This document shows positions 19,697-55,396 of a stretch of 64,000 bases of DNA, one piece after another. A program made the position numbers and the translations under genes. The first letter of the stretch is position 1, and each line of letters opens with the position of its first letter. The stretch is from the IMG/VR virus record IMGVR_UViG_3300046370_000598, positions 1-64,000 of that record. One strand, written 5' to 3'. The stretch comes from a virus. Below the pieces are notes generated by a model. The model did no database searches and was not told the origin of the DNA. It saw nothing but the letters and a program-made list of their open reading frames with translations.

Positions 19697-19703
19697 TCGT
19701 TTA

Positions 19704-19732: not shown

Positions 19733-19836
19733 GCAATATTCAAAAAATCGAATTCTGGACATTCAAAAAATTGTACAATGTTAATACTATAGGTATTCAT
19801 TAATATATTTTATTAATATATATAAATATATAAGAA

Positions 19837-19865
19837 TTGACAAATAGTAAAAAAGATGATATAGT
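19837..19865 (+). promoter_or_regulatory. sigma70-type promoter with extended -10, leaderless arrangement
   Basis: TTGACA-17 nt-TATAGT (TGn before the -10)-7 nt-ATG(19873). Confidence 0.8.
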
Positions 19866-19872
19866 ATGTAGT

Positions 19873-20169: not shown

Positions 20170-20171
20170 TT

Positions 20172-20723: not shown

Positions 20724-20732
20724 TTTTACATC

Positions 20733-21335
20733 ATGAGTGAAAACGTTTCAGATATAGATCTTATCAATAATATAAAAGATAATACAAGAGCTAAAGAAAG
20801 CTTGACTCTTCTCGTTGATAGGCATAGCGGTATTTATCTTGACATGGTAAACTCTTACGCTAGTCCAAACAGCCCTTTTACGGATTATCAGGATTTAATA
20901 AAAGACAAAGAATATAGAATATACAACGCAGCGATTAAGTACAACGAAAGTAAAGGTGCAAAATTCAGCACTTACCTAGGGAATGAGACTAGGTGGATGT
21001 GTCTCAATATGTATAATAAAAATAAAAGGAAGCCTACGTTCCATAGTGACTTCTTAGAAAATATGCCAGAAGATGAGGAGATTTCTCAAAATTCAGATAG
21101 TATATCAGAGAATATCAAAAAAGATCTATTTAATAAGGTATTATCTATGATTAGTTCTCACCCAGATAAAAGAGTAGAGAAAATATTCACTATGAGGTAT
21201 ATTGTAGGAAATAAAAACAAAGTTATGCCGTGGAAAGATATTGGTGATGAAATTAATTTAAGTATACAAGGATGTATTAATATACATAATACAGTAGTAA
21301 AAGATTTACAGGAGGAATTAAAACAGGAAATATGA
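20733..21335 (+). CDS. Phage RNA polymerase sigma factor
   Basis: Region-2-like AAIKYNESKGAKFSTYL and region-4-like HTH MPWKDIGDEINLSIQG. Confidence 0.75.
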   Translation: MSENVSDIDLINNIKDNTRAKESLTLLVDRHSGIYLDMVNSYASPNSPFTDYQDLIKDKEYRIYNAAIKYNESKGAKFSTYLGNETRWMCLNMYNKNKRKPTFHSDFLENMPEDEEISQNSDSISENIKKDLFNKVLSMISSHPDKRVEKIFTMRYIVGNKNKVMPWKDIGDEINLSIQGCINIHNTVVKDLQEELKQEI

Positions 21336-21718
21336 ATAAATATATAGCATTAGGTAATTTAACTAAAGACCCATCACTCAAGACAACTAAAAATGACAAT
21401 GCAGTTTGCGAGTTTTCTATAGCAATAAATAACAAAGTTAACAATTCAGTATTTTATATCGACGTTGAGACTTGGGGAGCAGTAGCAAATAACTGTAATA
21501 GATTTTTATCTAAAGGCAGAAAAGTACTAATTGAAGGTAGACTAGCTTCTAGTTCCTGGCGAAATAAAGAAGGGGAAAATAGAACTAAAATATACTGCAA
21601 TGCGGAAAGAGTAACTTTCTTAGATAAAACAGAAGCAGATCAGTCCCAAAAAACAGATAGCGTTAGTAAAACTGCGGAAAAAATAATTGAAGACGAATTC
21701 GCGGATATACCTTTTTAA
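21332..21718 (+). CDS. ssb: Single-stranded DNA-binding protein
   Basis: MNK.I..GNLTKDP, FSIA.N, W...A......LSKGRKVLIEGRL...W, acidic tail FADIPF. Confidence 0.92.
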   Translation: MNKYIALGNLTKDPSLKTTKNDNAVCEFSIAINNKVNNSVFYIDVETWGAVANNCNRFLSKGRKVLIEGRLASSSWRNKEGENRTKIYCNAERVTFLDKTEADQSQKTDSVSKTAEKIIEDEFADIPF

Positions 21719-22773
21719 TGAAAGACTTAATATTTAAAGGCCCGCTCAATTCACTTTCCTTTGGGAATGTATCTTATAACTTATTATATGCAATGTTTAA
21801 GAAAGGTATGAATGTATCCATCTTTCCATCCGGTAAAATAGATATTAGCGCATTCGATAAAATATCAGAAGATTTTAAAAAATGGCTTGAAGTATCCTCA
21901 AACGGAAGATATAAAGATATTGATAAGGATATGACAACCTTGCAGTTATGGCACTTAAATGGGGCAGAAAATAGAATAACATCCAAACAAATACTATATA
22001 CTTTTTACGAATTAAATAAACCCACAGATACAGAAAAAAGCTTAGCTTCATTACAAGACCAAACTGTATTCAGCAGTTCTTACGCTTCTTCTCAATTTAA
22101 AAACTCTAGTTACTCTCCATTAGGTTTCGATCAAACCCTAAACAAAACAGGTAAATCGTATATGCCAAATAAAATACATTTCGGCTTAATGGGTAAATTT
22201 GAAAAAAGAAAACATACAGAAAAGATTATAAAGTGTTGGCTTAAAAAATATGGCAACAATTATGACTACCAACTGACATGCTGTATAACGAATCCCTTCT
22301 TCGAGAAAAATCAAATGGAGACATGCATATCTAATATCTTAGAGGGAAAAAGATATGGCAATATAAACTTTCTACCTTTTCTACCACATAATAGTCAAGT
22401 TAATGATTTTTTAAATTCAATTGATATTGATCTTGGAGGAATGAGTGGTGCCGAAGGCTGGAACCTACCATCCTTTAATGCAACCTGCTTAGGAAAATGG
22501 AGCGTTGTTTTAAATGCAACAAGCCACAAAGATTGGGCAAACTCCAAGAATAGCATTCTTGTAGAGCCTAATGGGAGAGAGCCTGTATATGATAATATCT
22601 TTTTTAATGAAAACTCTCATTTCAATCAAGGTGAAATATTTACTTTTGATGATGATGAATTTATATCCGCAATGGAAAAAGCTGAAACAAAATGTAAAAT
22701 AAATAATTCTGAAGGAGAAAAGTTAAAAACAAAATTTACCTACGAAAATACTTTAGATAAAATATTAGAATAA
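21718..22773 (+). CDS. GT-B (GT4-like) glycosyltransferase
   Basis: GKFEKRKH and SGAEGWNLPSFNA.CLGK motifs. Confidence 0.7.
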   Translation: MKDLIFKGPLNSLSFGNVSYNLLYAMFKKGMNVSIFPSGKIDISAFDKISEDFKKWLEVSSNGRYKDIDKDMTTLQLWHLNGAENRITSKQILYTFYELNKPTDTEKSLASLQDQTVFSSSYASSQFKNSSYSPLGFDQTLNKTGKSYMPNKIHFGLMGKFEKRKHTEKIIKCWLKKYGNNYDYQLTCCITNPFFEKNQMETCISNILEGKRYGNINFLPFLPHNSQVNDFLNSIDIDLGGMSGAEGWNLPSFNATCLGKWSVVLNATSHKDWANSKNSILVEPNGREPVYDNIFFNENSHFNQGEIFTFDDDEFISAMEKAETKCKINNSEGEKLKTKFTYENTLDKILE

Positions 22774-24561: not shown

Positions 24562-27051
24562 ATGGCTACAAGGAATTTAGTACCAAGGAATAGTGGAGAA
24601 GGCAGCGTAGGCAAACTAGATCAAGCCTGGGGGTCTGGAGTATTTGATAATCTATTCGTTAGTGGCTTAGATATATTTGAATCTTTAGATAATGCGATAG
24701 ATCAAGTAAATCCATTTTTATTTTTTCCTGAAGTTCAAAACAATACAGGGCCAATTACAAAACAATATTATAATACTCCTGTTTCTGATATATATTTATC
24801 CGGCGTAACTGTATCCACTGCGGAAGATTTTAGAGTTACTATGAGATGGGATGGTCCTGGCGATGAATATATGGGTGAAGCTAAAATTAATGGGCAAGTT
24901 ATTCCTTTTGAAAATATTCATGAGCTTGGAGAAAAAACAAGAAGGTTTGAGGGATATATAGATAATTTAAATTTTGAAGGGCAAAATAACATAACAGGAG
25001 AAGCTAACGGCAGAATAGCTTTACTCCCACTGATTGAAGTTGGACCTGGCCCAGATCCAGTCAATATCTCTATAGATCCCATAGAAAATGCAACCCCAAA
25101 AGCTGGAGAGCAACTTGGTCAAACACATTTAAAAGAAGGGGACTCTATAAATATATATATTGATTTTGACAGAAATGACATTAATAGAATAAAAATCTTT
25201 GATTATGGATTATCCAAAGAAATTGATTACGCGAACTATCAACTTGAAAACGTAAATGGTATATATAGAGCTTCAATTCCTATAGAAGTTTCAAATAGAC
25301 AGGGAAACCTACCTGTTGCTGTTCAAGCTGTAGATCATTTTGGCGGTACAGGGCAATTAATAGAATCATCTAATTTTAATCATAATAATAACACTAGAAA
25401 TACAGATCAAACCTACCCAATCATAAATGTAGACGAACCAACTCTTTATAACGGTAGAACGGATGGTTTAAGAGAAGGTGAGAGCGTAACTTTTACTAAT
25501 GATATATTTAACTGGGTTAGTGGTATTGATTTAATATCTTATCAAATATTAAGTCCAAAAATATCCATGAACAACACTACTGATTATGAAAGAATAAAAA
25601 CAGTAAGTTATGTAACAGGTGTTTTTAGTGATGAAGATAATATCGAAATTCAAGTTCAAAGGTTAAGTAATGGCGCAACAAAAAAAGAAGGAGTAAATAT
25701 AAAAGTTGCAAATGCTCCGCTTATACTACAAGCAGAGCTAGATACATTCGCTTCTTCTGCAGCTTCGCCAAATATAATAGGAACATCTCAAGTTAAAGCT
25801 GGAGATGTAGTTAACGCAACTATTGTTGTTGATGGAAAAGGTTCCGATATTAATGAAATATCAATATCAGTATTAGATACTGGCTTAAGCGATGGATCAC
25901 AAACAGATTTTAATTTTAATTATAGCAAAACAATACTTTCAGATGGCAGTTTTCAATTTATAGTGCCAATTACAGTATACGGAACTTTCGGCCAGTCAGA
26001 TAGGGACGGCCAACAATCGGCATCTTTAATTATACAAAATTCTTCTGGAACATTGGGTGAATCTTTAACTACGTCAAATACGATCGAAGTGCATAATGGA
26101 ACAGTACCTATTATAAATGTCTCTTCGATAAATTATCCAATAAATCAACAAGCGATTAAACAAAATGAATCGGTAACTGTATCCCATACGATTACTCAAA
26201 ACGACCTCGTCGAATACTCATCAATAAATGGAGAGTTATCTATAAGTGACCCAACAGTATACAACACTTCTAAGTCTATAAATTATTCTTCAGGATCTTA
26301 CAATATAGACATAGATGGTGGTCAAAATAATTTAAAAATATCCGCAACTAGATTGCAAAACGGTGCAGTCGTAGAACAAGATTTAATAGTTAATATAGCT
26401 AATCAAGCATTATCAGCGAATATAAATGGCTTAATACAAAGCCTGCAAACTCTCTCTGGTCAAGATAATAGTGATAATTTTTATTTATCAACTAACCAAC
26501 TAATGCTTGAAGCTCCAAGTTTAAATGTAGACCCAAATCAATTAAACCCATCTGAGGTAACTTCTACTGCATCTGGAACAGGTAAATTGAGTAATGCTTA
26601 CACATTAACAGTCAAAGAGCAAGATAGTAAAGGCACATTCACTTTTTCATTTTTAGCTAAAAATTTAGCTGGAGTAGAAACAACAGTTATATCTTCAAGC
26701 CCAAATTATTCACTAGAAGGTTTTGCCGAAAGAACAGTTTTCGCACTCCCTACTGACCTTGCAGCAGGTTTAATTTTTATTGGTACTCAAGTTTCCAATC
26801 CGAATAATCTATCAGTAGAGAATGTTTCTGAAGGTGGAGGTGGTGCTAATGGCGGAACATACTATACCTACAAAGCGTTGACCGTGGGTACTCAATTAGA
26901 TAATTTAATTAACCACAACAATCAATTTACGGTTTGCGACGAAAATGGATTAGTTGATCCTTCTGGATCTTATTTATTTAATTTGGATAGAAATAATAGA
27001 TCCGCGAACACATCCACGGAAAATCCTAGTCCATTTATAATTTCAGAATAA
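24562..27051 (+). CDS. Beta-rich virion structural protein (Ig-like repeats probable)
   Basis: 829 aa, rich in S/T/N/I. Internal duplication (KEGDSIN../KAGDVVN.. and YNGRTDGLREGESVT../YPINQQAIKQNESVT..). Confidence 0.55.
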   Translation: MATRNLVPRNSGEGSVGKLDQAWGSGVFDNLFVSGLDIFESLDNAIDQVNPFLFFPEVQNNTGPITKQYYNTPVSDIYLSGVTVSTAEDFRVTMRWDGPGDEYMGEAKINGQVIPFENIHELGEKTRRFEGYIDNLNFEGQNNITGEANGRIALLPLIEVGPGPDPVNISIDPIENATPKAGEQLGQTHLKEGDSINIYIDFDRNDINRIKIFDYGLSKEIDYANYQLENVNGIYRASIPIEVSNRQGNLPVAVQAVDHFGGTGQLIESSNFNHNNNTRNTDQTYPIINVDEPTLYNGRTDGLREGESVTFTNDIFNWVSGIDLISYQILSPKISMNNTTDYERIKTVSYVTGVFSDEDNIEIQVQRLSNGATKKEGVNIKVANAPLILQAELDTFASSAASPNIIGTSQVKAGDVVNATIVVDGKGSDINEISISVLDTGLSDGSQTDFNFNYSKTILSDGSFQFIVPITVYGTFGQSDRDGQQSASLIIQNSSGTLGESLTTSNTIEVHNGTVPIINVSSINYPINQQAIKQNESVTVSHTITQNDLVEYSSINGELSISDPTVYNTSKSINYSSGSYNIDIDGGQNNLKISATRLQNGAVVEQDLIVNIANQALSANINGLIQSLQTLSGQDNSDNFYLSTNQLMLEAPSLNVDPNQLNPSEVTSTASGTGKLSNAYTLTVKEQDSKGTFTFSFLAKNLAGVETTVISSSPNYSLEGFAERTVFALPTDLAAGLIFIGTQVSNPNNLSVENVSEGGGGANGGTYYTYKALTVGTQLDNLINHNNQFTVCDENGLVDPSGSYLFNLDRNNRSANTSTENPSPFIISE

Positions 27052-31650: not shown

Positions 31651-32910
31651 TTAAATAGAATTTATGTAAAGTATGTTTCCACTTAATGTAACAGTTACTC
31701 CTGGAGTTCCATTATTTCCCTTGGGTCCTTGAGGTCCTTGAGGTCCAGTCGCCCCTGTAGCTCCTGTGCCTGCAGGGCCCTGAGGTCCAGTCGCCCCCGT
31801 ATTACCAGTATTACCTTTTGGCCCTTGAGGTCCAGTCGCCCCTGTATTACCAGTATTACCTTTTGGCCCTTGAGGTCCTTGAGGTCCTTGAGGTCCTTGA
31901 GGTCCAGTTGCTCCAGTTGCTCCAGCATCCCCTTTTGCTCCGTTAGACCCAATAATACCATCATTACCTTTGTCTACCATTAATTCCCAGCCAATTCCTG
32001 AGTCTGTGGGGTAAGCTCCAATTATTGGATCTGCATTTATATTCTGAGTAGAAATGTAAACCCTACCTTGATATTTAACCATCTCTCCGGAAGAATAGTT
32101 TTGATTAATGTCCCAATCACCTTTCCAGTTATCAGATAACGATCTACCTCCTCCGCCAATCTCATTCCATTCGCTTCCAGGGTCTGTAGGGTAATGACCC
32201 ATAACTGGATCAGGATTTATATGACTAGCAGCTATATAAGTTTTTCCTGCGTGCTTAACTATATCTCCTGGCTCGTAATTTGAATAAACATCTAAATCTG
32301 ACTTCCAACTACCGGAAGATCCCCCTAAAGAATCCCAACCCATACCAGGAGATGTGGGATAGGCAGGCATTGTGGGGTCACCTAAAACATTTCTATTGGC
32401 GATATAATTTTTTTCTTGATATCTTACTATTTCTCCAGGCGTATAATTTTGATTAACATCCCAATCGCCCTTCCAAGTACCAGAGCTTGCTCCTCCACCA
32501 AGTTCACGCCAATTACTTCCAGGGTCTGTAGGGTAATGACCCATAACTGGGTCGGAATTTATACTATCAGAAGCGATATAAGTTTTGCCCGAGTGTTCAA
32601 CTATATCCCCTGAATTATAATTAGCGTAAACATCTAAATTACCTTTCCAACCACCAGAGCTTGCTCCGCCACCAAGTTCATCCCAATTACTTCCAGGATC
32701 TGTAGGGTAATGACCCACAGCTGGATCAGAGTTTATATTATCAGAGGCTATATAAGTTTTACCTGCGTACTTAACTATATCACCTTTAGTGTAATTAGAG
32801 TAAACATCTAAGTCTCCTTTCCAGCCGGCAGTTTCTTCTTTTATAGCTGCCGCTTTTCCGTTAACACTTAAGTTTTTAAAATCCGCGTTTTCTACTGAGA
32901 ATGGTTTCAT
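31651..32910 (-). CDS. Fibre protein with five CBM5/12-like repeats and a collagen-like tail
   Basis: Five copies of WKG(D/N)(L/W)D...NY..G(D/E).V.(Y/H).G..YI......P....YPT..G..W, followed by about 30 Gly-X-Y triplets. Confidence 0.8.
31700..31970 (-). repeat. Collagen-coding repeats (9-bp units and a 45-bp tandem duplication)
   Basis: TTGAGGTCC tandem units. [15 protein letters not shown] occurs twice. Confidence 0.85.
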
Positions 32911-32915
32911 TTTTA

Positions 32916-34709
32916 TTATGATTTAAGTTGTTCGATTTCTTTTTTGAGATCTTCGATCATTGTTTGTTGTTCTTTTGTTGCATTAACAAGAGCTGCGATT
33001 ATAGTTTGAGAATTCAATCCCCATTTGTAATCATCTTCGTCCTTTTCGTTCTTGAAAGCTTCGCGAGGCGCAGCTTCGGGCATGATTGGGTGAACATCTT
33101 GGGCAAAAAATCCAATAGTTGGCTGTTGATCCTCTGGACCCTCTTTCCATGTGTATTTTTTGGGCTGCACTTGCATTATCTCACTTAATCCATATTCACA
33201 ATCACCAAGGTCATTTTTTAATCTTTTGTCGGAGCTTGTGGTTAATTGCTTTGAAGAATTAGTAACAACATCTGAACTTGCAGCTAAACTACTTAAATAT
33301 ACTGCGCCTTCTCCGTTTACTTCCATTAAAGCAGTTCCATTTGTATGAGTGCTATTATTAGACCTAATAGTAAAAACCTTAATACTAGAGTTATTATTTA
33401 TGCAAGATACTGTAACACCCTGATTTCCGCTTGTTGTATTATTAGAATTATGAAGCCAAGCAACAGGAACACCGGGAGTTGATGATTTAATGACATTTAA
33501 TGCATTAGTAGGATTCGTAGTACCAATACCTACGTTGCCGCTGGAGTCGATGCGCATACGCTCATTAAATGAGGCAGTTCCACCAGAACCAAACATTGTG
33601 TGAAATTGAATATTACCATCGCGATTATCAACGGAACTAAAATCTGAATCTTTACCGAATCTTATTTTTGCAACTGCATTATCACCTCCGCCAGAATTTC
33701 TTACCCGAGCTTGGATAGATACAGATTGATTAGTCTCACCAACTCCATAATCATAATTACTTAAAACTAAAGCTAGAGATTCACCATTCGCAACTGAGTT
33801 GTCAAAAATATGTAAATTACCATCAGGATTCGGAGTACCAATACCTACGTTGCCGCTACCAGTCCCACTGTTAAAGATAAATTTATCTCTTGAATTAAGT
33901 GTGAGTGTATCATTTGAATGCTTGTAGATAATAGATCCAGCTCCATTATCATCTGCGTCTCCAAATCTCAATTGAGTTTGACCTGCAGATAAAAACTGAA
34001 TTCCAGTATTTGAAGAATCTTCTATAGTTACACTAGTATTGCTGTTTGTTGAACCACCTGTTAATACTCCCTGTTGAATATGTAATTTATTAGAAGGATT
34101 CGTAGTACCAATACCTACGTTGCCAGATGTGTCTATGCTAAGCCTAGTATCCACACCTTCTCTAATTGTAAAAGCGCTATTTGAAACAATTTCCCAAGTA
34201 TTAGTTGCGTCACTCAGGGCAAGTGAACAATGGTCAGCATCATATATGTGTAAACATTTATTAACTGAGTTTGGAGATGTAGGATTCGTAGTACCAATAC
34301 CTACGTTGCCGTCGGAGGCAATACGCATTCTCTCCAACGAAGAGCCTGTATTCCTATCTATAAAACGAAATGTACCACCGCTAAACCAGAACTGGTCACC
34401 TCGCATTTGGATACCCCCATTAACATCAAGCGATAAATCCGGACTCGTAGTACCAATACCTACATTACCTGCGGAAGAAATAAATAAATCTGGATTAGTA
34501 ATCCCTATCGCTCCTGAAGTACTAACCCCAAAACCTCCACCTGAATGACCAAAATAAACATTTCCATCATTAGCTCCAGAACCTGATCTTTGCAATCTTA
34601 TCGAATCATTACTGCTTTGCTTTAAATGAAGTAATCCATCACTAGGATTTTCTTCGCCGATTCCGACGTTTTCTGTAAAAATTGCTTTTTTTGCTTTTAG
34701 TTTTTTCAT
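32916..34709 (-). CDS. Tail fibre with [10 protein letters not shown]-delimited modules and S74 chaperone
   Basis: Five GNVGIGT(T/P)xP repeats. SSDKRLK...IGFFAQDV...MPEA. Confidence 0.85.
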
Positions 34710-37700
34710 ATTATTTATTTTCTAAAGTTTCGATTCGAGCTTTAAGATCTTCGATTATTGTTTGTTGTTCTTGGATTGCTTTGGTTAAAAGAGGTACAAG
34801 TTTACTTTGGTCTATACCTTGATAGTCAGGCACTTGCCTTGTTCCCATTTCAGCTTCAGTAATAACATTACCATCATTATCTAATTCTGCTGGCGCAATT
34901 TCGTACTCTTCTTCTCTAACAGCATCCTTTTCTCCGGAAATAGCTTCTGGCACAACTTCTTGAACTTCATGAGCCAAGAATCCATCAACAATTTTTTCTG
35001 GATCTGTTATAAAATTAAACCTACAAGGTTTAAGCTTATTAACTCTTTCTATTGCATTATCAACTTCGACAACATTTTCTTTTAATCTGTAGTCTGAGCT
35101 AGTATTGTATGATGTAGTAGTACCACCTGCCTCTATAGTGCCGACAATACCGTTAGCGTTATAAAAAGCTAAATGTGTTCTCTCTGCAGTCCCAGGTCTT
35201 ACAGTTTTAATACACGAATCCGAGGTACTCTCTGTTTGCCACACATCTAACCGACTCGCAGTAGGATTCGTAGTGCCAATACCTACGTTGCCGTTATCAA
35301 TGATCGACATGTGACGTCTCCAACTCCGAACATTACCAGAAGATGTGGAACCTGATCTTTCTATATGAAGATCACCATTTCCAAAATTGATACGTGAGGC
35401 ACCCACCGGTGCTGTCGCTTTACCTTGTTCATCATAATGCGTCCCGACGATTTGTCCTTGCAGTATGAGATTGCCATGACTATTACGCGGATCTTTGCCC
35501 AACATGATCGCTGGTGAATACGATGCAGCATTGGGTCTGGTTATGTCTAGAGCAGTTTGAGGATTCGTAGTACCAATACCTACGTTGCCGCTTGCTTCGA
35601 TACGCATTTTTTCAACGGGCTCCGTAGTACCAACTGCTCCTGTTGAAAACGATAAGCTACCATCATCCCGAAAGGTTATATCGGATATCCCTGCTGTATT
35701 ATCATCAGTCTGATATGCAGGGACATCTCTATTGTAATTATTAGCTAAACTTATGGACGTACTATCTCCTGAACCCATCCTTGCAATTCTAAAATAACTT
35801 TCAACATTATTGTTGTGTGCTATTGCTACAAAAGATCTTGTATTAGAATGACCTCCATAACCTGTTGTAACTAATTTTCCTTGACTAGGATTCGTAGTAC
35901 CAATACCCAAGTTACCGCTGGAGTCGATGCGCATTCTCTCATTCAAGTTTGAATAAAAGCTCATATTATTACTTGCCACATTGTAACGTATTTGCCCAGC
36001 AGCATTTGCACTGCCAGTTTCACTATCAGTTCCAAAAAACAATCGACAGTCACCTGTATCGTTAGAGAGTTGTAAAATTGGACCAACGCCGCTTGTTGCA
36101 CTATGCATATGTAGACTGCCAATAGGATTCGTAGTACCAATACCTACATTGCCGGTGGAGTGGATGCGCATTTTTTCATCACTAGCGTCCTGACCATCAA
36201 TTTTGAACGAAATTATGCTTGTTGCACCATTACCATTATAGTCAGAGACTAACTCTAAACTATTCTCAGACATAAATCTTCTATTAGAAATTATCTGACC
36301 ATTCACCTCTAACTCAGCACTAGGATTCGTAGTACCAATACCAACATTACCTGTGAAGAACCCGTTTTCTGTTCTGAAATCTTTCATACTATTTGTTTTC
36401 TAAAGTTTGCGTGCGATCAATCAGATCATCGATTATGGATTGTTGTGATTCGTTTTGAGATTTCAAGTCTTCGATCATTGTTTGTTGTTCTTGGATTGCT
36501 TTGGTGAGAACAGGAATCAAAGCTCCCATGCGAATACTTTTTCTATTCACGACTTCACCATCATCAGAGGAGATATTGTGATCACTTACTAGACCCGGAA
36601 AAACTTCTTCCAGTTCTTGAGCTATAAAACCAATTTTCTTTTCTCCAACCTTTTCGGGGTGAAATTCAGAAATCCATTCAAAATTACGAACTTTTAGTCT
36701 TTTAATATCTTCCAGTTTGGAAGTTGCGTCTTGAATATTAGTCTTTAAACGTTCATCTGAAGACAGAAAGCCTGAATCACTTGTCCACACGTCACCGTCA
36801 CTATAAACTCGCATGCGTGTAGCTGTGGCATCAGTGCATCTAATAAAATCCATATGTGTTTGGTCAGGAGATGAATTTAGATATCTAATATGTAATCCAT
36901 GTGGACCTGTAGCTCCTGTAGTCCCACTTGAAGTATTTGTTATTTCAGCCGCAAAATTACCGTCACGGTCATCCGATACGTGCAATTTATAAGCAGGATT
37001 CGTAGTACCAATACCTACGTTGCCGCTCGACTTAATACGCATCCTTTCAGCGGGCGTAGAAAGATTACTACCTGTGTAAAATAACAAATGATGAGAACCA
37101 TCCTCAGTATGATCCTCTCTAAATCCACCGATAGATGCCTTCCCATGTGCAAATAATATTCTTGTTCCCTGATAATTAGTTGGAATATATCGACTGAGGT
37201 ATAATGAGTCAACCCAATCAGGGTTAGCAGCTGTTCCCGCGGCGGCTGTAGAACTATCATACAGATGTAATTGACGAGAAGGATTCGTAGTACCAATACC
37301 TACGTTGCCGCTGGAGTTGATACGCATTCTTTCAAGCTCATCTGTTCCATCATCAGATATGAAGTGAAATGAGCTATGGTTGTTACTTGCGGATAAAAAT
37401 GCCATGGATGAACCGCCGCCCGAAATCTGACTATACTGAGTACTCGGAGCTAGGTCACGGGATATTCTAAACTGAGAGCCCGCTGGCCCATTCACTTCTA
37501 AGGCTACACCAGGATTCGTAGTACCAATACCTACGTTGCCGTTTGAACGTATCGTTAATCTAGCATCTGTACCGTCGCTAATTCTAAGGGATGCAAGAGA
37601 ACCTTCGCTACTAGTAAAAATTTCGTAAGGGCCATTACTGTAACCGCTTCCCATACCGAGAGTAATTCCACTAGTCTCCATTCCGGTTCCGCCACCAACG

Positions 37701-38572
37701 ACCAATACAGAGTCTCTATTGTGTACGGAAACAGGATTCGTAGTACCAATACCTACGTTGCCGCTGGAGTCGATAGTCATATGGGGCGAATCTACTTCGT
37801 ATCCAGATCTGCCAGCAGCAAAATGTAAATCTTGGCTACCGTTAGTGGATGAGGCTTTACCCCATATACCTACGAAATGATCTTCTACCCCATCTGCGTC
37901 AGAATTGGCGATTAGTAACGAACCGCAAATATCACCTACATTCACAGATGAACCGCTTCTATGTGCAACTATATCACCACCTGTTGCGGAAGAAACGACA
38001 AGTGCTGTTCCAAGTTGCAAACCTGTTAAACCAGGATTCGTAGTACCAATACCTACGTTGCCGCCATTGATACCAAACTTACCTGCATTTATAGATAACG
38101 TTATTGCATTATCACTCGCGTCTGTTAATTTAATTGCGTTATTTAATGTAGTATTACTACCGTTTAAAGTTAAACCGACTTGTGATGCCGCGACATAATC
38201 CACTTGCAACTTCGCACTAGGATTCGTAGTACCAATACCTACGTTGCCTGCCACGATAGACATGTCTTCATTAAATGATGTATTATTTCTAGTAAAAAAG
38301 CCTATTCTTCCTTTGCTATTCAAGGCATCATGCGTAACGCCTCTTATAGATGAAAAAGTTTTAGCCAAAGGATCTGCACCATCTGCATCATTGCCGATAA
38401 AATTAATAATACCATGAGCATCTTCATCTGCAGGGGTAGAGGAATCTTGTATCAACGCAATCTCTGCGCCACCTGCACCATCCCTGGTTGATTTTAGCCT
38501 GAGTAAATCATTATCACCTTCAATATGTAATTTCGCAAGTGTTGGATTCGTAGTACCAATACCTACGTTGCC
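33511..38572 (-). repeat. Dispersed 29-bp direct repeat GGCAACGTAGGTATTGGTACTACGAATCC, 17 copies
   Basis: + strand starts of exact copies: 33511, 34096, 34282, 35561, 36996, 37281, 37512, 37734, 38034, 38220, 38544. One mismatch: 33826, 35264, 36125. Three mismatches: 34441, 35888, 36323. Confidence 0.95.
34711..36387 (-). CDS. Tail fibre with [10 protein letters not shown]-delimited modules and S74 chaperone
   Basis: Five repeats. YNTSSDYRLKENV...DGFLAHEVQEVVPEAISGEKDA...QGIDQSKLVPLL. Confidence 0.88.
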   Translation of the reverse strand: MKDFRTENGFFTGNVGIGTTNPSAELEVNGQIISNRRFMSENSLELVSDYNGNGATSIISFKIDGQDASDEKMRIHSTGNVGIGTTNPIGSLHMHSATSGVGPILQLSNDTGDCRLFFGTDSETGSANAAGQIRYNVASNNMSFYSNLNERMRIDSSGNLGIGTTNPSQGKLVTTGYGGHSNTRSFVAIAHNNNVESYFRIARMGSGDSTSISLANNYNRDVPAYQTDDNTAGISDITFRDDGSLSFSTGAVGTTEPVEKMRIEASGNVGIGTTNPQTALDITRPNAASYSPAIMLGKDPRNSHGNLILQGQIVGTHYDEQGKATAPVGASRINFGNGDLHIERSGSTSSGNVRSWRRHMSIIDNGNVGIGTTNPTASRLDVWQTESTSDSCIKTVRPGTAERTHLAFYNANGIVGTIEAGGTTTSYNTSSDYRLKENVVEVDNAIERVNKLKPCRFNFITDPEKIVDGFLAHEVQEVVPEAISGEKDAVREEEYEIAPAELDNDGNVITEAEMGTRQVPDYQGIDQSKLVPLLTKAIQEQQTIIEDLKARIETLENK

Positions 38573-41095
38573 CGAATTATAACTCAAGTTATTAGACCCA
38601 TCTTGATCCCAGTAAGAAGAGGAAGATGAAGAGGTTTCTCCGCCAAAAACTGTATGAATAGTATAATTTGAATTTGGTATATTATCTAAAAATACAGCGT
38701 GATAACCTGTAGCGCTGACTCCGGAAACAGCATAGGGAATTATATCTCCATCCCCATCAATTTCTAGAGTTGTTGCTACTTTTGGCGTTTGAGAAAACGG
38801 TCCAAAAGCAATTGGGTGAGTTAAAGACCCTGAAGGAATATTAGTTTCAAAAGAAGCTGGAGCTTCGCCTGTTGAACTTCCTCCACCTCCCACAAAATTA
38901 GAAGCTTCTAAAGTTCCACTGATGACAACATCACCTAATACATTAAGATTATTTTCGATACCCACATCCCCTAAATCGTAACTTATATTGTTTGTAGGAT
39001 CTTGAGTCCAATGAGAGGTATGTCCACCAAAAACTGTATGCAATATATAATCAGAAGTTGGAATCGCTGTAGAAAATACAGCATGATAACCTGTGGTACT
39101 TACTCCGGAAACAGTATAAGGAATTATATCTCCATCTCCATCAATTTCTAAAGTAGTTGCGATTTTTGGTGTTTCTGAAAATGGTCCAAAAGTAATTGGA
39201 TAACTTGAAGATCCTAGGGGAATATTAGTTTCAAAAGACGGTGGAACTTGACCTGTAGAACTTCCTCCGCCTCCTACAAAATTAGAAGCCTCTAAACTTC
39301 CGCTAATAACAACATTTCGACCGATAATTACATCTCCATCATTATAAAAAATATCTCCAGCATTACCAGTATCCCATAATACATCTTTTCCTCCAAAAAC
39401 AGTATGTATTTTATAATTGTTATTAGGAATTGTTTGAGCAAAAATTAAACTATAACCGCTTGTAGTTACGCCAGATATACTATATGGAATAATAGATCCA
39501 TCACCATCAATTTCTAAGTCTGTAGCGATTTTAGGTGGAGAGCTATAAATATCTGCAAAATTGATTATTTGTACAGATTCTCCAGAAACTAAACTGTTAA
39601 TCATAGCTTCTGGAGCATTGACTGTTGATTGTTGGGAGCCGGGATTAGTTCCTGCGATCCATTTATTGCCGTCCCATTTTATAATATCATTAATCGATAC
39701 TGGTTGGGAACCTCCAATAGATCCATTTTGATCAAAAGAAAAAGTTGATCCTATATTTAAAGAAGAGCTAATATTAACGGTTCCATCAACATCTAATGCG
39801 GAGCTTGGATTACTTTTATTGATTCCAACATTTCCTTGGTTATAATAAATTTCTCCAGCTTCAGAACCTTCTTGCCATTTGCCTAGATTATTTGAAGAAA
39901 TTCCAGTTAAAACAGAATTTCCGCTAACAAATAAACCTTGACTAAAATTACCTATGCCATCTACGTCTAAAGCTGAGTTTGGATTACTTTTATTGACCCC
40001 GACATTTCCTTGATCATAATAAATTTCTCCAGCTTCAGAACCTTCTTGCCATTGGTCTGAACCATTAACAACTCCAGTTAAAACAGAATTTCCACTAACA
40101 AATAGGCCTTGACTAAAATTACCACTTCCAAATACATCAAAATCATACCCTGGGTTATCAGTATTAATTCCAACTTTACCAGAATTATAGTATATTTCTT
40201 CGTAAGCATAAATGGTAATTGTTCCAGTCATATTTGATGGGTGACTGGTGCAATAATATGTATAAATTCCAGCGGATACAGGAGAAAAAGTTGTTACTCC
40301 AGAACTCTCAACAGCAACATCATTTCCATTAGAGTCTTTTATTGCTAATGTATGACCTCCACCAACATTATTAAAAATTAAAGTTTCACCCGTAAAAGCA
40401 ATTAAATTCGGATCTTTGCCAGTTTGATCTCCAGAAAAATTGTAATCTAGGCCATCCCCAGATATATCAAAATTATAAACCTTATCAGAAGTCCCTGAAC
40501 CAGAATTCCATTTACCTAAATTACTAGATGCAGAAGTTATAACTTCTGAACCTCCAACATATAAACTGTTAAAATTACCACTACCATTGACGTCTAAATC
40601 GTATCCAGGGGAACTTTGATGAACTCCAATTTTCCCAGCTTTTATAGTTAAGCCATTATCCGAATCGTCAAATAAACTTAATCCATCTGAATCTAAAGCA
40701 GTGATTTTGTCTGTAGAAATTTTCTTTCCATTTGCAGTGTAAAAGTTTTCGCTGGAAGTCCAAGCTTGAGTGCTATTAATCCAATTTATACTTTTATTGG
40801 TTAATCCATGTAAAGTAATTCCCCCGCCATTAGCTTCTAAATCTGTAGTTGAACCTACACCAAGTTCAATATTTTTATCATCAACCTGTATAGTAGTACT
40901 ATTAACTGTAGTGAAATTACCCTTAACAGTCAAATCTCCATCTATTTGGGTATCACCCGTAACATGCAAATAAGATTCGGGTAAAGTTGTACCTACTCCA
41001 AACTTACCGCCGCTTATACCTATAACAATTTCATTTTCAGTTTCAACGAAAGAATTATCACCACTTTTAATTAAATATACTTGATTTTGGTCCAT
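36389..41095 (-). CDS. Long tail fibre: cupredoxin-like domain, three lectin-like domains, seven [10 protein letters not shown] modules, S74 chaperone
   Basis: LTVKGNFTTVNSTTIQVDDKNIELG fibre motif. H...YYCTSH..NM. Three copies of PK(I/V)AT.LEIDGDG.IIPY..SGV. SSDERLK...IGFIAQELEEVFPGLV. Confidence 0.88.
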   Translation of the reverse strand: MDQNQVYLIKSGDNSFVETENEIVIGISGGKFGVGTTLPESYLHVTGDTQIDGDLTVKGNFTTVNSTTIQVDDKNIELGVGSTTDLEANGGGITLHGLTNKSINWINSTQAWTSSENFYTANGKKISTDKITALDSDGLSLFDDSDNGLTIKAGKIGVHQSSPGYDLDVNGSGNFNSLYVGGSEVITSASSNLGKWNSGSGTSDKVYNFDISGDGLDYNFSGDQTGKDPNLIAFTGETLIFNNVGGGHTLAIKDSNGNDVAVESSGVTTFSPVSAGIYTYYCTSHPSNMTGTITIYAYEEIYYNSGKVGINTDNPGYDFDVFGSGNFSQGLFVSGNSVLTGVVNGSDQWQEGSEAGEIYYDQGNVGVNKSNPNSALDVDGIGNFSQGLFVSGNSVLTGISSNNLGKWQEGSEAGEIYYNQGNVGINKSNPSSALDVDGTVNISSSLNIGSTFSFDQNGSIGGSQPVSINDIIKWDGNKWIAGTNPGSQQSTVNAPEAMINSLVSGESVQIINFADIYSSPPKIATDLEIDGDGSIIPYSISGVTTSGYSLIFAQTIPNNNYKIHTVFGGKDVLWDTGNAGDIFYNDGDVIIGRNVVISGSLEASNFVGGGGSSTGQVPPSFETNIPLGSSSYPITFGPFSETPKIATTLEIDGDGDIIPYTVSGVSTTGYHAVFSTAIPTSDYILHTVFGGHTSHWTQDPTNNISYDLGDVGIENNLNVLGDVVISGTLEASNFVGGGGSSTGEAPASFETNIPSGSLTHPIAFGPFSQTPKVATTLEIDGDGDIIPYAVSGVSATGYHAVFLDNIPNSNYTIHTVFGGETSSSSSSYWDQDGSNNLSYNSGNVGIGTTNPTLAKLHIEGDNDLLRLKSTRDGAGGAEIALIQDSSTPADEDAHGIINFIGNDADGADPLAKTFSSIRGVTHDALNSKGRIGFFTRNNTSFNEDMSIVAGNVGIGTTNPSAKLQVDYVAASQVGLTLNGSNTTLNNAIKLTDASDNAITLSINAGKFGINGGNVGIGTTNPGLTGLQLGTALVVSSATGGDIVAHRSGSSVNVGDICGSLLIANSDADGVEDHFVGIWGKASSTNGSQDLHFAAGRSGYEVDSPHMTIDSSGNVGIGTTNPVSVHNRDSVLVVGGGTGMETSGITLGMGSGYSNGPYEIFTSSEGSLASLRISDGTDARLTIRSNGNVGIGTTNPGVALEVNGPAGSQFRISRDLAPSTQYSQISGGGSSMAFLSASNNHSSFHFISDDGTDELERMRINSSGNVGIGTTNPSRQLHLYDSSTAAAGTAANPDWVDSLYLSRYIPTNYQGTRILFAHGKASIGGFREDHTEDGSHHLLFYTGSNLSTPAERMRIKSSGNVGIGTTNPAYKLHVSDDRDGNFAAEITNTSSGTTGATGPHGLHIRYLNSSPDQTHMDFIRCTDATATRMRVYSDGDVWTSDSGFLSSDERLKTNIQDATSKLEDIKRLKVRNFEWISEFHPEKVGEKKIGFIAQELEEVFPGLVSDHNISSDDGEVVNRKSIRMGALIPVLTKAIQEQQTMIEDLKSQNESQQSIIDDLIDRTQTLENK

Positions 41096-43400: not shown

Positions 43401-44106
43401 AAACCCGGAAACCGAGTTCTATTGCTCTATTAGTTAATAACATTTCGTTAATTATCGCTTTTGCTTTATTTTTAAATAAAATTTCATCTGACTCCGGATT
43501 AAAAGCGCTATGCCAATACTTCGATAGCCATAAATAAATATGCCGCTTTAGCCCACTACTTATTTCCTTCGATGACATAAAAAGTTTGAAATCCTGAGTA
43601 ATTTCATTTACATTAAAAAGATCCGTGTTATCGACATTCAATAACTTGAAAATTTCGCTTGACCCAATAAAGCAATTACTGCAAATCCAGCTACTCAAAT
43701 CTCGTTCATTAAAAAATAATTCCGAGGAAATTAACGATCGGTCTATTTTTCCTATTAGCAGGTTATGTTTTTTTGATAAATAAAACACATCCTTAAGTTT
43801 ATCATCATCTAGCAAAGTTTTTCCATAAGATTTTAAGGAGTCATTCACAAAGAGCATTACATCGGGACTTATATTTTTCTTAACATAATCCAATCCCTTC
43901 TGCCAACCAGAGAACTCCCAGTTTTTGTTATTTCCAGCAATAATGTGAAAAGCCCCAAATACTTCTTTCTCTTTTTTTTCCATAAGATTATCTACAATGA
44001 CATATTCTGTATGTAGGTTTGTTTTATTTAACTGTCCCACTATATAAGGTAAAGAGTGTGGGTATTTCTTGGTGTCATACTGAACATAAATAACCGCGAT
44101 TTTCAT
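43369..44106 (-). CDS. Hypothetical protein, possibly glycan-related
   Basis: VIVDN, GNN..WEFSGWQ.G and FVNDS motifs. Coupled within the GT operon. Confidence 0.55.
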   Translation of the reverse strand: MKIAVIYVQYDTKKYPHSLPYIVGQLNKTNLHTEYVIVDNLMEKKEKEVFGAFHIIAGNNKNWEFSGWQKGLDYVKKNISPDVMLFVNDSLKSYGKTLLDDDKLKDVFYLSKKHNLLIGKIDRSLISSELFFNERDLSSWICSNCFIGSSEIFKLLNVDNTDLFNVNEITQDFKLFMSSKEISSGLKRHIYLWLSKYWHSAFNPESDEILFKNKAKAIINEMLLTNRAIELGFRVFDSKNKCIHD

Positions 44107-46808
44107 GTTTTAAATCCCTTCTTGTATCCCAATGGAATAAATGTTACATTGTCTGCTATAGCATCTTTTCTATAATATTGTCGAAACACATGTTTAAAGT
44201 TTTTGTAATGATCAATTTCGGCGTGACAATGTTCGTCACTCAAATGAACCAATATACAATTTTTATTTTTTAATTTTTCAAAATATTGATTTTGTTTTGT
44301 GCGCAATTGACTTAGGTTTTCGCGGAATTTTTCTGGATATGTATTTATGTTTTTCGCATACATATCACTATATACAATCACACTATTCTCTTCTATAATA
44401 TTCATATCTTCATTGATAACAACATCAAAATCATCAAACAACTCACATATAAAATCCTGCTCAAATAAATTTTTGTGTGTGAATATTAATTTTTGTTTTT
44501 TTGTTTTTTGTGAAACATGAAATGCTTGAGTTTGCGCATTCCAATGAACAATATTTTCTGCATTATAAAAATCTGCTTTATCCTTTTCAAACGTTTGTGG
44601 ATTAAATTGTTTGTCGATGTTTCTGTATAATGTGTGATATTCTGGACCAATTTCGCGGAAAGTTTCAAGATATTCGCAAGCCTCAATTTGTTTTCTTATA
44701 TCATTAAAATACTCTGGATTGTTGCCGCGATCAACAATCTTTGCGCCTAAAATTTCACACACCGATTGCATGTAAGAATATACAGCCAAGAAAAACAAAG
44801 ACTTTCCTTGTTTTCTGTAGTTTAAATTGTTTGCTATTGCTCGACCTATGATTGGGTTTTTCGCGCAAGTCAAAATAAAGTCTTGAGAGAAATCTACATC
44901 TTGAAAAGTTGGTAAAACACATGATGTTTTATGATTAACAATTTCAGATATTGGAGTATCAATGTATCTATCAATATCAACATACAACCCACCCTCCTTG
45001 TATGTTTTTAATAGTCTCCACAAATCTATTTTTTCGGTATTTTTTCTGTCTTTTATTAAATTCCAATTGTCGCGACCAATTGAATCGCGCAGTAATCGAT
45101 TGACGTCCTCGTCATCATAAATCTGAACGTCCCAATCTGGATTCAGTAGCTCTAGGTTTTTCGCGCCTTTTCGAATAAGTTCGTAGTTTGAATCAAGTAC
45201 ATTTTTATTTTTCCAAGATAGATGAATTTTTTTGGGTATTTGTTTACTGTATATTTTAGCGAGCAATGGAAACTCAATCATCTCATACTCTTGTTTAATT
45301 TGAAACTTTTCTTCCGCAAATCTTAAATCTGATTTTTTATCTATTTCTGTATTATCATTTTCTTCGTGCAATTGATAGCTCATAAGAGGATTGAGATGAT
45401 ATATGCTTTCTGGCTTCGCAAACAATTTATTTTCATTAAAAAAGTTTTGCATAAAATTGTCAAGAGGCTCATCCATTCCAAACTGTTCAACCCATTGACA
45501 TAGTAAACTAGCAGCAGTTTTATGCAAAATGTACGAACTTGCATTCATATGCCAAAAATGATCGTTTTTAGTAAAAAAATCATTTCTTTTTATTCTGCAA
45601 AAATAATCATTATATCGCTCAAGAACCTCTGTGTAGCGTGGTTTATTCCATGGCTGGCAACCACCAAGATAAATTATCGAATAGTCGCTTGGTATTTGTT
45701 TGCTAAATACTTGATTCCAGAAATTCACAAAACCATCTTTAAATACTGCATCATCTTCTAATATCAAATAGTTCGTAGCGTTCTTGTCTTGCACCAATTT
45801 TTCCCACAGTCTATAATGACTTAATGCACAACAGATTTCTGCTTTACTTCTAGATTCCCAAGTTTTTGGAAATAATTTTTTAACTTCATTGTTTAGTTCT
45901 ATTTTCTTTGCATCGATTGCACTGACTCTTTGAGTTGAAAATTCTGTATTTTTATACATATGAAATAATCTATCTAAACGCCGATCAAGATTAATGAAAT
46001 AACTTTTTGAAATTTTCTCCAACTCTCGGTTCATATACATTTCTTTTTTAGTTCCAACAAAGTCACTTAAAGAACCGTCGGCCCTTTGCATTAAAAACAT
46101 AAAATTATTTATCTTACCATGTGAGACATTATCTTTTTTTAATTTACTTAACAAATATTTTTCTGCGTGATAATATTCTGGTTTATTTTTTATGTCAGAA
46201 TATCTTGTGCAATATGAATTTAATGCTTTTTTATTTTTAATAATAGCAAATCTATCATTTATTCCACCAAACCAACCATAATCAATTTGCGGACAAACAT
46301 TATAATACGGAGTAAATAAATCTTCATTAGATTTTAAACATTCTAAAGATAATGGATGAGTAAAAAATAAATCGCCTCTAGAAAGTATAAAATAATCATA
46401 ATCATCAATTCTATCTGCAAATGAATTAATAAAATACTCTAAAGAATAAATTTGTTTTAATGATTTTCTTATAGAATCTAAAGCATCTCCATCCCCCCAT
46501 GCTTCTCCAAATTTAATTACTTCTTTTGCCAGATCACATATATTTTCTTCTTTATTCCTTAAATCTTGATCGTAAAAAATCTCCTTAAATTTAAAATACT
46601 TTTGAATACTTTTATGATTTATGGGTGTCGGCTCAAGCTCCGCGTCAGCTTGTCTGGAATTAAAATAAAAAGAAGACTTACTAGTAACCAAAAAATAATC
46701 TACTTCATTACCCTCGATTTGCTTTTTTACATTCTCTTCGAAAGAAAAGTATTGTTTTTCGTCAAAATTTTTAACTTGTCCAAAAAAAACAAAAGCTACC
46801 TTACTCAT
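44103..46808 (-). CDS. Multidomain glycosyltransferase: VAF.F.G domain, GT25, GT32, exostosin-like N-half
   Basis: GT25: INLDRRLDR, CALSHYRLW, ILEDD. GT32: IPKKIH.SW, DLWR....EGGLYVDID. C-terminal LVHLSDE...VFRQY...IPLGY. Confidence 0.8.
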   Translation of the reverse strand: MSKVAFVFFGQVKNFDEKQYFSFEENVKKQIEGNEVDYFLVTSKSSFYFNSRQADAELEPTPINHKSIQKYFKFKEIFYDQDLRNKEENICDLAKEVIKFGEAWGDGDALDSIRKSLKQIYSLEYFINSFADRIDDYDYFILSRGDLFFTHPLSLECLKSNEDLFTPYYNVCPQIDYGWFGGINDRFAIIKNKKALNSYCTRYSDIKNKPEYYHAEKYLLSKLKKDNVSHGKINNFMFLMQRADGSLSDFVGTKKEMYMNRELEKISKSYFINLDRRLDRLFHMYKNTEFSTQRVSAIDAKKIELNNEVKKLFPKTWESRSKAEICCALSHYRLWEKLVQDKNATNYLILEDDAVFKDGFVNFWNQVFSKQIPSDYSIIYLGGCQPWNKPRYTEVLERYNDYFCRIKRNDFFTKNDHFWHMNASSYILHKTAASLLCQWVEQFGMDEPLDNFMQNFFNENKLFAKPESIYHLNPLMSYQLHEENDNTEIDKKSDLRFAEEKFQIKQEYEMIEFPLLAKIYSKQIPKKIHLSWKNKNVLDSNYELIRKGAKNLELLNPDWDVQIYDDEDVNRLLRDSIGRDNWNLIKDRKNTEKIDLWRLLKTYKEGGLYVDIDRYIDTPISEIVNHKTSCVLPTFQDVDFSQDFILTCAKNPIIGRAIANNLNYRKQGKSLFFLAVYSYMQSVCEILGAKIVDRGNNPEYFNDIRKQIEACEYLETFREIGPEYHTLYRNIDKQFNPQTFEKDKADFYNAENIVHWNAQTQAFHVSQKTKKQKLIFTHKNLFEQDFICELFDDFDVVINEDMNIIEENSVIVYSDMYAKNINTYPEKFRENLSQLRTKQNQYFEKLKNKNCILVHLSDEHCHAEIDHYKNFKHVFRQYYRKDAIADNVTFIPLGYKKGFKT

Positions 46809-53964: not shown

Positions 53965-54297
53965 GTGAAAAAATTAAACAAGAGGGAATGTATAAAAAGG
54001 ATGGTGATCGAGCCTACAACTCAAAAACGCATGTTTTGGGCTAGGGAAATGAAAATGCTTAACGAACTCATAGGTAAATTTCCAAATTTAGATTTCTGGA
54101 GAAGAGCTTCGTTTCAAAAAGTCCCCTCTCTGTCTCACTTTAAATCAAGATATGGATTAGAAAAAATATCTAAAATGTACAGAGAGTTTAATTACATCAT
54201 ACCTCCAAAAAAAGATATAATACTTGGAGAAAAAACTGGAAAAGATAAAATATTATCGAAAAAACCAAAAACAATTAGACAATTTATAGATGAGTAA
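53965..54297 (+). CDS. Basic hypothetical protein
   Basis: 110-aa ORF overlapping the start of the RecA-like gene. Confidence 0.6.
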   Translation: MKKLNKRECIKRMVIEPTTQKRMFWAREMKMLNELIGKFPNLDFWRRASFQKVPSLSHFKSRYGLEKISKMYREFNYIIPPKKDIILGEKTGKDKILSKKPKTIRQFIDE

Positions 54298-55396
54298 AAC
54301 AAAAGAAATAAATACTACCGATCAAATAGCCAAATTTCTTGGCGACAAAGACAATAAGAAATACCACTACAACTTCCATAATAGCGAAGATTACAAGATT
54401 TCCAGTGGTAGTCTAAATTTAGATATAGCGCTAGGTGGAGGCTTGCCAAGCGGAGCACATAGATTTACCGGCATTAATGAAGGGGGCAAAACTAGCTGCG
54501 CTATGGCTTTTGCAAGAAATTTTCAAAAGCATTTCAAGAAAAATGGAATGATAATCTACATTAAAAGTGAAGGAAGGTTTAGTTCAGAAATGATTGAGAG
54601 GTCAGGTATAGATACTGATCCAGAAAAATTTTTTGTTTTCGATTGCAATATTTTCGAAAAAGTCTTTGAGCTGATAAGAGAATTAGTTTTCAATAATGAA
54701 GATGATAAAAAATATATGTTCATTATAGATAGTGTAGATGCTCTTTGTAGGGTTGGAGATATAGATAAACCGTTTGCGGAGTCTGAGCAAGTTGCAGGTG
54801 GAGCTTTAATAACTTCTGTATTTTTAAAGAAAATGGTATTACCAATTACCAAAATGGGACACACAATGATATTAACTAGCCAAGTAAGGGTGGAGGTAGC
54901 AACAAATCCATACGCCTCAAGAGGAGGGCCAAAAGTCAAGCAGGCGGGTGGAAACGCTATCAAGCATTATGCTAACTTTATCTTAGAGTTCCAGGAAAGG
55001 TACAATTCAGATCTTATCTTTAAAAACCCAACTGCATCAAAACTGGAAGACAAGGGTGAACCAATCGGCCATTATTGTAAAATAAAATTCAGAAAAAGCG
55101 TAAATGAAAAAACAGGCTCTACTGCAAGATACCCAATTAAATACGGACAAAAAAATGGCAAGTCAGTATGGAGAGCGAGGGAAATACTTGACATGTTATA
55201 TCTGTTCAACCTAATAGAAAAAAAAGGTGCTTGGATATCAGTCTCAGAAGACTTGGTCTCCGAGCTGAGTAATAAAAAAATAGAAATTAGTGAAAAGTTT
55301 CAAGGCGAGCAAAGGCTAATAGATTTTTTAGAAGAAAACGAAGATGCCTCAAAATTTTTATACGAAGATTTTAAAAAGTTAGTTAATGCGATTTAA
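54290..55396 (+). CDS. RecA/UvsX-like recombinase
   Basis: ISSGSLNLDIALGGGLP, G.NEGGKTS Walker A, IIDSVDAL Walker B, SQVR, GGNAIKHYA, KKGAW. Confidence 0.9.
   Translation: MSKTKEINTTDQIAKFLGDKDNKKYHYNFHNSEDYKISSGSLNLDIALGGGLPSGAHRFTGINEGGKTSCAMAFARNFQKHFKKNGMIIYIKSEGRFSSEMIERSGIDTDPEKFFVFDCNIFEKVFELIRELVFNNEDDKKYMFIIDSVDALCRVGDIDKPFAESEQVAGGALITSVFLKKMVLPITKMGHTMILTSQVRVEVATNPYASRGGPKVKQAGGNAIKHYANFILEFQERYNSDLIFKNPTASKLEDKGEPIGHYCKIKFRKSVNEKTGSTARYPIKYGQKNGKSVWRAREILDMLYLFNLIEKKGAWISVSEDLVSELSNKKIEISEKFQGEQRLIDFLEENEDASKFLYEDFKKLVNAI

Follow-up and report, generated by a model that had tools for sequence, protein, structure and literature searches.

We analyzed a stretch of 64,000 nucleotides (nt), positions 1 to 64,000 of the IMG/VR virus record IMGVR_UViG_3300046370_000598 (here called the window), in which three neighboring tail-fiber genes carry 17 copies of a 29-nt sequence, GGCAACGTAGGTATTGGTACTACGAATCC, referred to below as the linker. 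The DNA identity of the linker exceeds protein constraint and codon bias, and fiber segments shared with diverged relatives tend to end at linker copies. Most probably, the copies form an array of homologous-recombination linkers that concerted evolution keeps uniform, and they represent a multi-copy form of the recombination at conserved motifs that is known from T-even phages. An earlier inspection of the sequence (the original prediction) had taken the repeats for in-frame crossover points within and between genes and phages, and this part of it is strongly supported by 39 further linker-bearing stretches.

Results

With up to 3 mismatches allowed, the 29-mer matched the window 17 times, always on the minus strand. 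Eleven copies were exact, 3 had one mismatch, and 3 had three; 100 shuffles of the sequence gave an expectation of 0 matches. The copies are split 5+5+7 over three contiguous open reading frames (ORFs) of 597, 558, and 1568 amino acids (aa), here genes A, B, and C (Table 1). Copy number, mismatch classes, and split were the same in our recount as in the original prediction. Each copy encodes the capping-loop peptide, described below, or a one-residue variant of it, and about half of the copies are directly preceded by (E)RMRIxSS. The spacing of copies within a gene, 159 to 327 nt, is always a multiple of 3, as had been stated, but this periodicity is trivial because every copy encodes one peptide in one frame. 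The most degenerate copies had been placed mostly near the 5′ ends of the genes; this is true of the first copies in genes A and B and not of gene C, where 7 of 7 are exact. A search of the rest of the 74,957-bp record, which the original prediction had proposed, found zero additional copies. Two more tail-fiber-like genes of the window, at 31651-32910 (minus strand) and 9689-10957 (plus strand), are without any linker copy, which limits the linker system to the three fibers with a Peptidase_S74 domain.

The flanks of the window linkers are unalignable as DNA, and no pair of the modules between them reaches 70% aa identity, which rules out recent duplication of whole modules in the window, an explanation that the original prediction had named as fatal to it. 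Its description of the modules as mutually unrelated is correct at the DNA level, but as proteins some modules are weakly alike (best pair, 39% over 49 aa, E 4e-5).

We then considered how closely the DNA of the linker is held. Given the peptide, the probability of the codon string is approximately 1.2e-5 with the codon usage of the window and 1e-5 with that of the fiber genes. Related peptides in the N-terminal part of gene C do use different codons, as had been claimed, with just 1 or 2 codons in common among 5 to 6 shared residues. As a peptide-matched control, viral contigs were scanned for the peptide in whatever codon spelling, independent of the DNA, and 120 stretches were listed. Among the matches listed, at least 144 copies of the peptide appear in 132 distinct spellings, with a mode of 5 to 6 differences from the window spelling. 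The exact DNA spelling of the window is found in 0 of these 144 listed copies, which come from other, unrelated viral contigs, and control copies inside one locus differ from one another. In the linker-bearing loci, each chosen for at least one exact copy of the 29-mer, 70 of 95 exact-peptide copies are the exact 29-mer and 18 more are off by 1 nt. Identical copies are seen in few other lineages (loci L073 and L137), where they result from the duplication of whole modules, the flanks being duplicated as well. Codon statistics and control together rule out codon bias as the cause of the identity and uphold the earlier argument that the wobble positions are not conserved through protein constraint alone. 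A second homogenized spelling, GGTAACGTTGGTATAGGAACAACAAATCC, which occurs in 12 stretches, consists of common codons, has duplicated flanks, and was set aside as a different phenomenon.

The 29-mer does not mark the limit of conservation. Its next base, the 30th, is T in 89 to 92% of copies, and when M-R-I precedes the copy, Arg is encoded by CGY in 62 of 65 cases (9% genome-wide) and Ser by TCC in 37 of 45 (6% genome-wide). The conserved DNA thus comprises a 30-nt core with a sharp 3′ boundary and approximately 24 nt upstream that are partly fixed in a graded manner. The GC-ending codons GGC, AAC, and ACG, to which attention had been drawn because the genome is AT rich, are not unusual: 3 of the 10 linker codons end in G or C, and GC at third codon positions is 0.23 to 0.29 in the region and the array, close to that of the backbone. 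We accordingly rejected these codons as a mark of foreign origin; what is unusual in the linker is the invariance of its codons.

Outside the window, the exact 29-mer was present in 39 further stretches, 13 of them IMG/VR contigs and 26 marine metagenome contigs, and in none of the bacterial and archaeal genomes of the collection scanned. The public runs comprise seawater and marine metagenomes and a single freshwater metagenome. Including the window, the 40 loci hold 310 linker copies at up to 4 mismatches. Their backbones have diverged considerably: a neighboring 754-aa protein is 60 to 80% identical, UvsX is 47% identical at the aa level in two linker-bearing relatives, and the N-terminal half of gene C is 40 to 55% identical in linker-bearing relatives. 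The linker spelling is restricted to one lineage of uncultured marine myoviruses.

In spite of these backbones, single modules are shared at 91 to 100% nucleotide identity, bounded by linkers and with unalignable flanks. The 156-nt module at 34125-34281, together with both of its linkers, is 100% identical to locus L010 between random flanks, and a 240-nt module is likewise 100% identical between L013 and L021. In five further cases, homology to the window ends at a linker: 33507-33855 (97.7% to L159), 35560-35917 (97.2% to L144 and 92% to L149), 38033-38251 (95.9% over 219 nt to L018), the gene A tip at 32905-33542 (98.4% over 638 nt to L018), and the gene B tip at 34750-35295 (96.3% over 546 nt to L010 and L012). 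L018 also combines parts of different window genes, since a module of gene C lies there in an ORF that bears the tip of gene A. In L141 (535-1433), one fiber gene has two copies of the same 175-nt cassette, 97% identical and with two other cassettes in between, which directly exemplifies the duplication of a cassette at linkers inside a gene.

To quantify where shared segments end, we took the internal ends of high-scoring segment pairs (HSPs) of at least 90% identity in fiber territory, with near-duplicate loci removed, and compared them with 1000 null replicates. HSP ends lay within 5 nt of a linker in 54.5% of cases, compared to a null mean of 9.5% and a null maximum of 17.4%, and 25 HSPs had linkers at both ends. 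Pure breakpoints were more common at near-exact than at degenerate linkers (odds ratio 3.5, p = 0.003, from non-independent data). Among 56 pairs of shared internal modules, both neighbors differed in 28, one differed in 8, and 20 were collinear. This comparison of module order in relatives, suggested in the original prediction, therefore yielded a non-collinear order with breakpoints at the repeat. As 209 of 309 modules are singletons, the module pool is large.

This mosaic pattern bears on a different history, in which one unit was amplified in tandem and its modules diverged fast in situ, by diversifying selection or hypermutation, under purifying selection on the motif. Some modules do keep weak protein similarity, and the modules share the ERMRI...GNVGIGT frame. 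Under such a history, however, divergence of the modules would have been accompanied by divergence of the linker at silent sites, and the identical modules in different contexts of diverged phages need transfer. The window's record also gave no match to a reverse transcriptase (RVT_1), and the repeat, which is 30 nt long, invariant, and not mutated at adenines, is unlike that of a diversity-generating retroelement. Because of the mosaic pattern, we disfavor in situ divergence as the main process and judge it highly unlikely.

Mosaics could also be false, if assemblers had joined fragments of co-occurring phages at a short repeat. All sequences used here are metagenomic contigs, and the Logan contigs, built with k=31, break and mis-join at the linker, with apparent joints whose sides, 23 to 54 nt, are too short for interpretation. 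On the other hand, reads, and also the larger k-mers that standard assemblers use, exceed the length of the repeat, 30 to approximately 54 nt. The likely source run shows a uniform depth of 135 to 170x over every module in genes A, B, and C, which argues against chimeric assembly. L010 and L012, which are from different samples, present the same 8-module order, and the ORFs all stay open across 5 to 10 joints. An artifact of this kind is, in our estimation, extremely unlikely.

A role of the linker in translation or RNA, such as pausing at rare codons in the capping loops for co-translational folding of the trimer, would turn the breakpoints into a product of selection at domain borders. GGC, AAC, and ACG are minority codons, and the motif does mark the borders of structural modules. 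Nevertheless, sites with two common alternatives (GGT/GGA, ATT/ATA, and ACT/ACA) are also 95 to 100% fixed, and other phages spell the same peptide freely, even inside one gene. Pausing would, moreover, leave unexplained the 100%-identical modules that end at the linker in phages with 47 to 80% identical backbones. We therefore consider this role very unlikely.

The original prediction had embedded the repeats in an integron- or shufflon-like system, and we searched for its enzymes. No match to Resolvase (PF00239) or Phage_integrase (PF00589) was found in the window's record, which is 51% complete, and two linker-bearing relatives that are 73 to 82% complete likewise gave neither a serine nor a tyrosine recombinase. 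Of the four linker-bearing records searched, just one, that of L016, gave a tyrosine integrase match, at G003:C1:26273-26719; an in-frame TAG interrupts it, so that it may represent a pseudogene or else reflect stop-codon reassignment. The window does encode a UvsX-like recombinase (Table 1).

The repeat itself was no more indicative of a dedicated system, in which a recombinase would recognize the 29-mer, perhaps as a single-strand hairpin. The sharp 3′ boundary of the conserved core is what a defined site would show, and within the 29-mer lies a 5-bp inverted repeat with a fold energy of -3.2 kcal/mol, alternatively drawn as a bulged stem of 7 bp. This "dyad," singled out by the original prediction, is nonetheless unexceptional, as its fold energy is equaled or surpassed in 17 to 30% of synonymous recodings of the peptide; we rejected it as a recombinase site. 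The graded conservation upstream resembles homology rather than a defined site. All copies are direct repeats on one strand, unlike the inverted sites of shufflons and invertible segments, and inversion is therefore impossible. An integron would bring an IntI tyrosine recombinase, for which there was no match, and attC-type folding beyond chance, which the comparison with synonymous recodings did not show. The records, being just 51 to 82% complete, leave some room for a missing enzyme, but the integron- or shufflon-like mechanism is not supported by these comparisons, and we hold a dedicated site-specific system to be very improbable. General homologous recombination is the better reading of the sequences.

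All three fiber proteins match PF13884 (Peptidase_S74) above the cut-off at the C terminus, and the catalytic SDxxxK motif is present in each translation (Table 1). The gene B protein matches the solved Bdellovibrio MAT (mosaic adhesive trimer) fibers 8OND (E 5e-7) and 8OML in PDB, in an alignment that passes exactly through ERMRI..GN(V/L)G(I/L)GT. MAT fibers are trimeric, intertwined β-helices or prisms with surface clefts edged by repeated capping loops, V-G-G/N-pi-x-x-P-x-x-x-L; capping loops occur in phage S74 fibers too, and SDxxxK was defined in the same study (Caulton 2024, PMC10769870). The repeated capping-loop motif (VG-G/N-pi-xxPxxxL) is present here in 17 copies. By homology to the solved fibers, the three genes probably encode trimeric β-helix tail fibers with a C-terminal S74 chaperone, and each cassette would be a shaft segment between two capping loops. 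The S74 fiber family is common in pelagiphages and cyanophages (30 to 39% aa identity).

Table 1. Fiber genes, linker copies, and UvsX-like gene of the window (L numbers denote linker-bearing loci)
Feature	Positions	Strand	Remarks
Tail-fiber gene A, 597 aa	32916..34709	-	5 linkers, then tip and Peptidase_S74 chaperone domain (SDKRLK)
Tail-fiber gene B, 558 aa	34711..36387	-	5 linkers, then tip and Peptidase_S74 domain (SDYRLK)
Tail-fiber gene C, 1568 aa	36389..41095	-	Linker-free N-terminal half, 7 exact linkers, tip, Peptidase_S74 (SDERLK)
Linker, gene A	33511..33539	-	Exact; breakpoint of L018-shared tip; bounds L159-shared module
Linker, gene A	33826..33854	-	1 mismatch
Linker, gene A	34096..34124	-	Exact; edge of module 100% identical to L010
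Linker, gene A	34282..34310	-	Exact; edge of module 100% identical to L010
Linker, gene A	34441..34469	-	3 mismatches; first copy in gene A
Linker, gene B	35264..35292	-	1 mismatch; breakpoint of tip common to L010/L012
Linker, gene B	35561..35589	-	Exact; edge of module common to L144 (97.2%) and L149 (92%)
Linker, gene B	35888..35916	-	3 mismatches; peptide GNLGIGTTNP
Linker, gene B	36125..36153	-	1 mismatch
Linker, gene B	36323..36351	-	3 mismatches; first copy in gene B
Linker, gene C	36996..37024	-	Exact; last copy ahead of gene C tip
Linker, gene C	37281..37309	-	Exact
Linker, gene C	37512..37540	-	Exact
Linker, gene C	37734..37762	-	Exact
Linker, gene C	38034..38062	-	Exact; bounds L018-shared module
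Linker, gene C	38220..38248	-	Exact; other edge of same L018-shared module
Linker, gene C	38544..38572	-	Exact; first in gene C, border of N-terminal half and cassette array
UvsX-like (RecA-family) recombinase	54290..55396	+	phrog_97, E 2e-38

Two other parts of the gene C protein drew our attention. The stretch YYCTSHPSNMTGTITIY, at 40210-40330 (minus strand; approximately aa 260 to 296), resembles a type-1 copper site (C-x2-H-x4-M). In Pfam, it matches Copper-bind (E 0.0016) and Cupredoxin_1 (E 0.018), both under the curated cut-offs, and it may represent a cupredoxin-fold domain within the tail fiber. At 38573-39640 (minus strand; approximately aa 486 to 840), three domains of about 120 aa follow one another in tandem (PKIATxLEIDGDGxIIPYxxSGVxxxGY…HTVFGG). 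This domain has a sub-threshold match to an H-type lectin (E 7e-4) and is found in relatives at 70 to 81% nucleotide identity; it may serve laterally in carbohydrate binding.

The window belongs to a myovirus, with a tail sheath gene at 24562-27051. The sheath is merely 29 to 35% identical to those of jumbo Pseudomonas phages, and megablast of gene C against cultured phages gave no match; judging from these comparisons, the phage is without a close cultured relative. Several glycosyltransferase-like genes lie around the structural genes (12290-22773, 44103-46808, and neighbors; phrog_2170 and phrog_2835).

Discussion

According to our model, any two linker copies could pair, by strand invasion or template switching, to yield an in-frame fiber, and every product would be in frame, given that orientation and codon phase are common to the copies. 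The partner copy could reside in the same gene, in a paralogous fiber gene, or in a co-infecting relative, and we infer that exchange takes place during co-infection. General homologous recombination at 30 to approximately 54 nt of identity would transfer single modules and fiber tips between genes and phages. Either the phage's UvsX-like recombinase, our candidate enzyme, or the RecA of the host could carry it out. Homogenization of the linker would be driven by the same exchanges and the gene conversion associated with them: modules with consensus linkers would spread, and degenerate linkers would drop out of exchange.

Several considerations weigh against this model. The evidence is wholly comparative, with no recombination event directly observed, and the breakpoint statistics rest on HSPs that are not independent events. 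The public k=31 contigs break at every exact linker and so are silent on population variants, deletions, and circles. An identity of 30 nt is near the lower limit for efficient recombination by RecA-family proteins. Selection on protein folding could also gather viable junctions at domain borders. Finally, a dedicated enzyme could be encoded elsewhere in the genome, as the window's record is 51% and those of the relatives are 72 to 82% complete.

A further-reaching proposal is that the linker is itself selected, as a standardized in-frame adaptor that gives diverged marine myoviruses access to a common pool of hundreds of cassettes, with exact copies kept for the evolvability of host range. 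On this proposal, single cassettes may also travel as excised circles or fragments, by analogy with the mini-circles of PeSL cassettes in T4-type phages. We put this forward tentatively and rather doubt it.

The closest known case is the conserved-motif recombination in the gp37 and gp38 genes of T-even phages. Trojet 2011 (PMC3157838), where Tetart 1996/1998 are cited, describes recombination at the "His boxes" of gp37 and the glycine-rich motifs (GRMs) of gp38. In both systems, a gene for host recognition consists of conserved structural motifs that alternate with hypervariable segments (HVS). In T-even phages, exchanges in or near the motifs, both in nature and in the laboratory, produce chimeric adhesins by general homologous recombination in a UvsX-encoding phage (PMC3157838); here, likewise, breakpoints in natural relatives fall at the motifs and a UvsX-like gene is present. 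The systems differ in several respects. The units exchanged here are shaft modules of 43 to 99 aa and tips, compared to T-even loops of 10 to 30 aa, and there are 5 to 10 joints per gene, across three paralogous genes. Module order is variable here, whereas GRM/HVS synteny is strict in T-even phages. The fibers belong to the S74 β-helix family, and silent-site identity was established against a peptide-matched control.

Other systems share single features with the array. Like the linker, the short direct repeats dispersed with the PeSL cassettes of T4-type phages serve as linkers for homologous recombination, and exchange between neighboring copies yields mini-circles (Arbiol 2010, PMC2839356). 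PeSLs, promoter-terminator elements located between genes, shuffle genes as a whole, while the linker described here is coding and in frame and shuffles parts of proteins. The fibers resemble the MAT fibers of Bdellovibrio (8OND, 8OML, and 8OJN) and the S74 fibers of phages by sequence homology, in the S74 chaperone with SDxxxK, the β-helix/prism shaft, and the capping loops; the MAT study (PMC10769870) is structural and functional work that describes neither a nucleotide-locked joint nor cassette exchange at it. In the receptor-binding proteins of Klebsiella and E. coli phages, short conserved stretches have also been read as exchange substrates, or "recombination hotspots" (PMC10408124; bioRxiv 10.64898/2026.05.12.724579). 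These stretches span about 30 aa, are defined by aa sequence, and are found once per gene at the border of anchor and tip, in contrast to a 10-aa (30-nt) joint that is iterated along the shaft. The R64 shufflon, the invertible G and C segments of Mu and P1, and integrons also recombine surface-recognition modules at short repeats, but they need Rci, Gin/Cin, or IntI and inverted or folded attC sites, none of which were found here. That fiber proteins are mosaics in general has been amply documented (PMC10684548). Searching the literature for the motif string gave no match, and we found no paper describing the joint. The present system is distinct in combining 5 to 10 joints per gene and control-backed silent identity with the exchange of single shaft cassettes and tips among widely diverged phages.

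Fibers largely set the host range of phages. Their genes are known to be mosaics in which conserved motifs are the usual places of exchange, but clean natural cases in which the DNA of a joint is demonstrably held identical are rare. The peptide-matched control separates DNA constraint from protein constraint in such a case. For the engineering of modular fibers, the array suggests a natural design rule, with capping-loop joints as tolerated fusion points. The model predicts that synonymous recoding of the linker would abolish exchange, and it offers a testable account of how receptor-binding fibers may be rebuilt in abundant uncultured marine phages.

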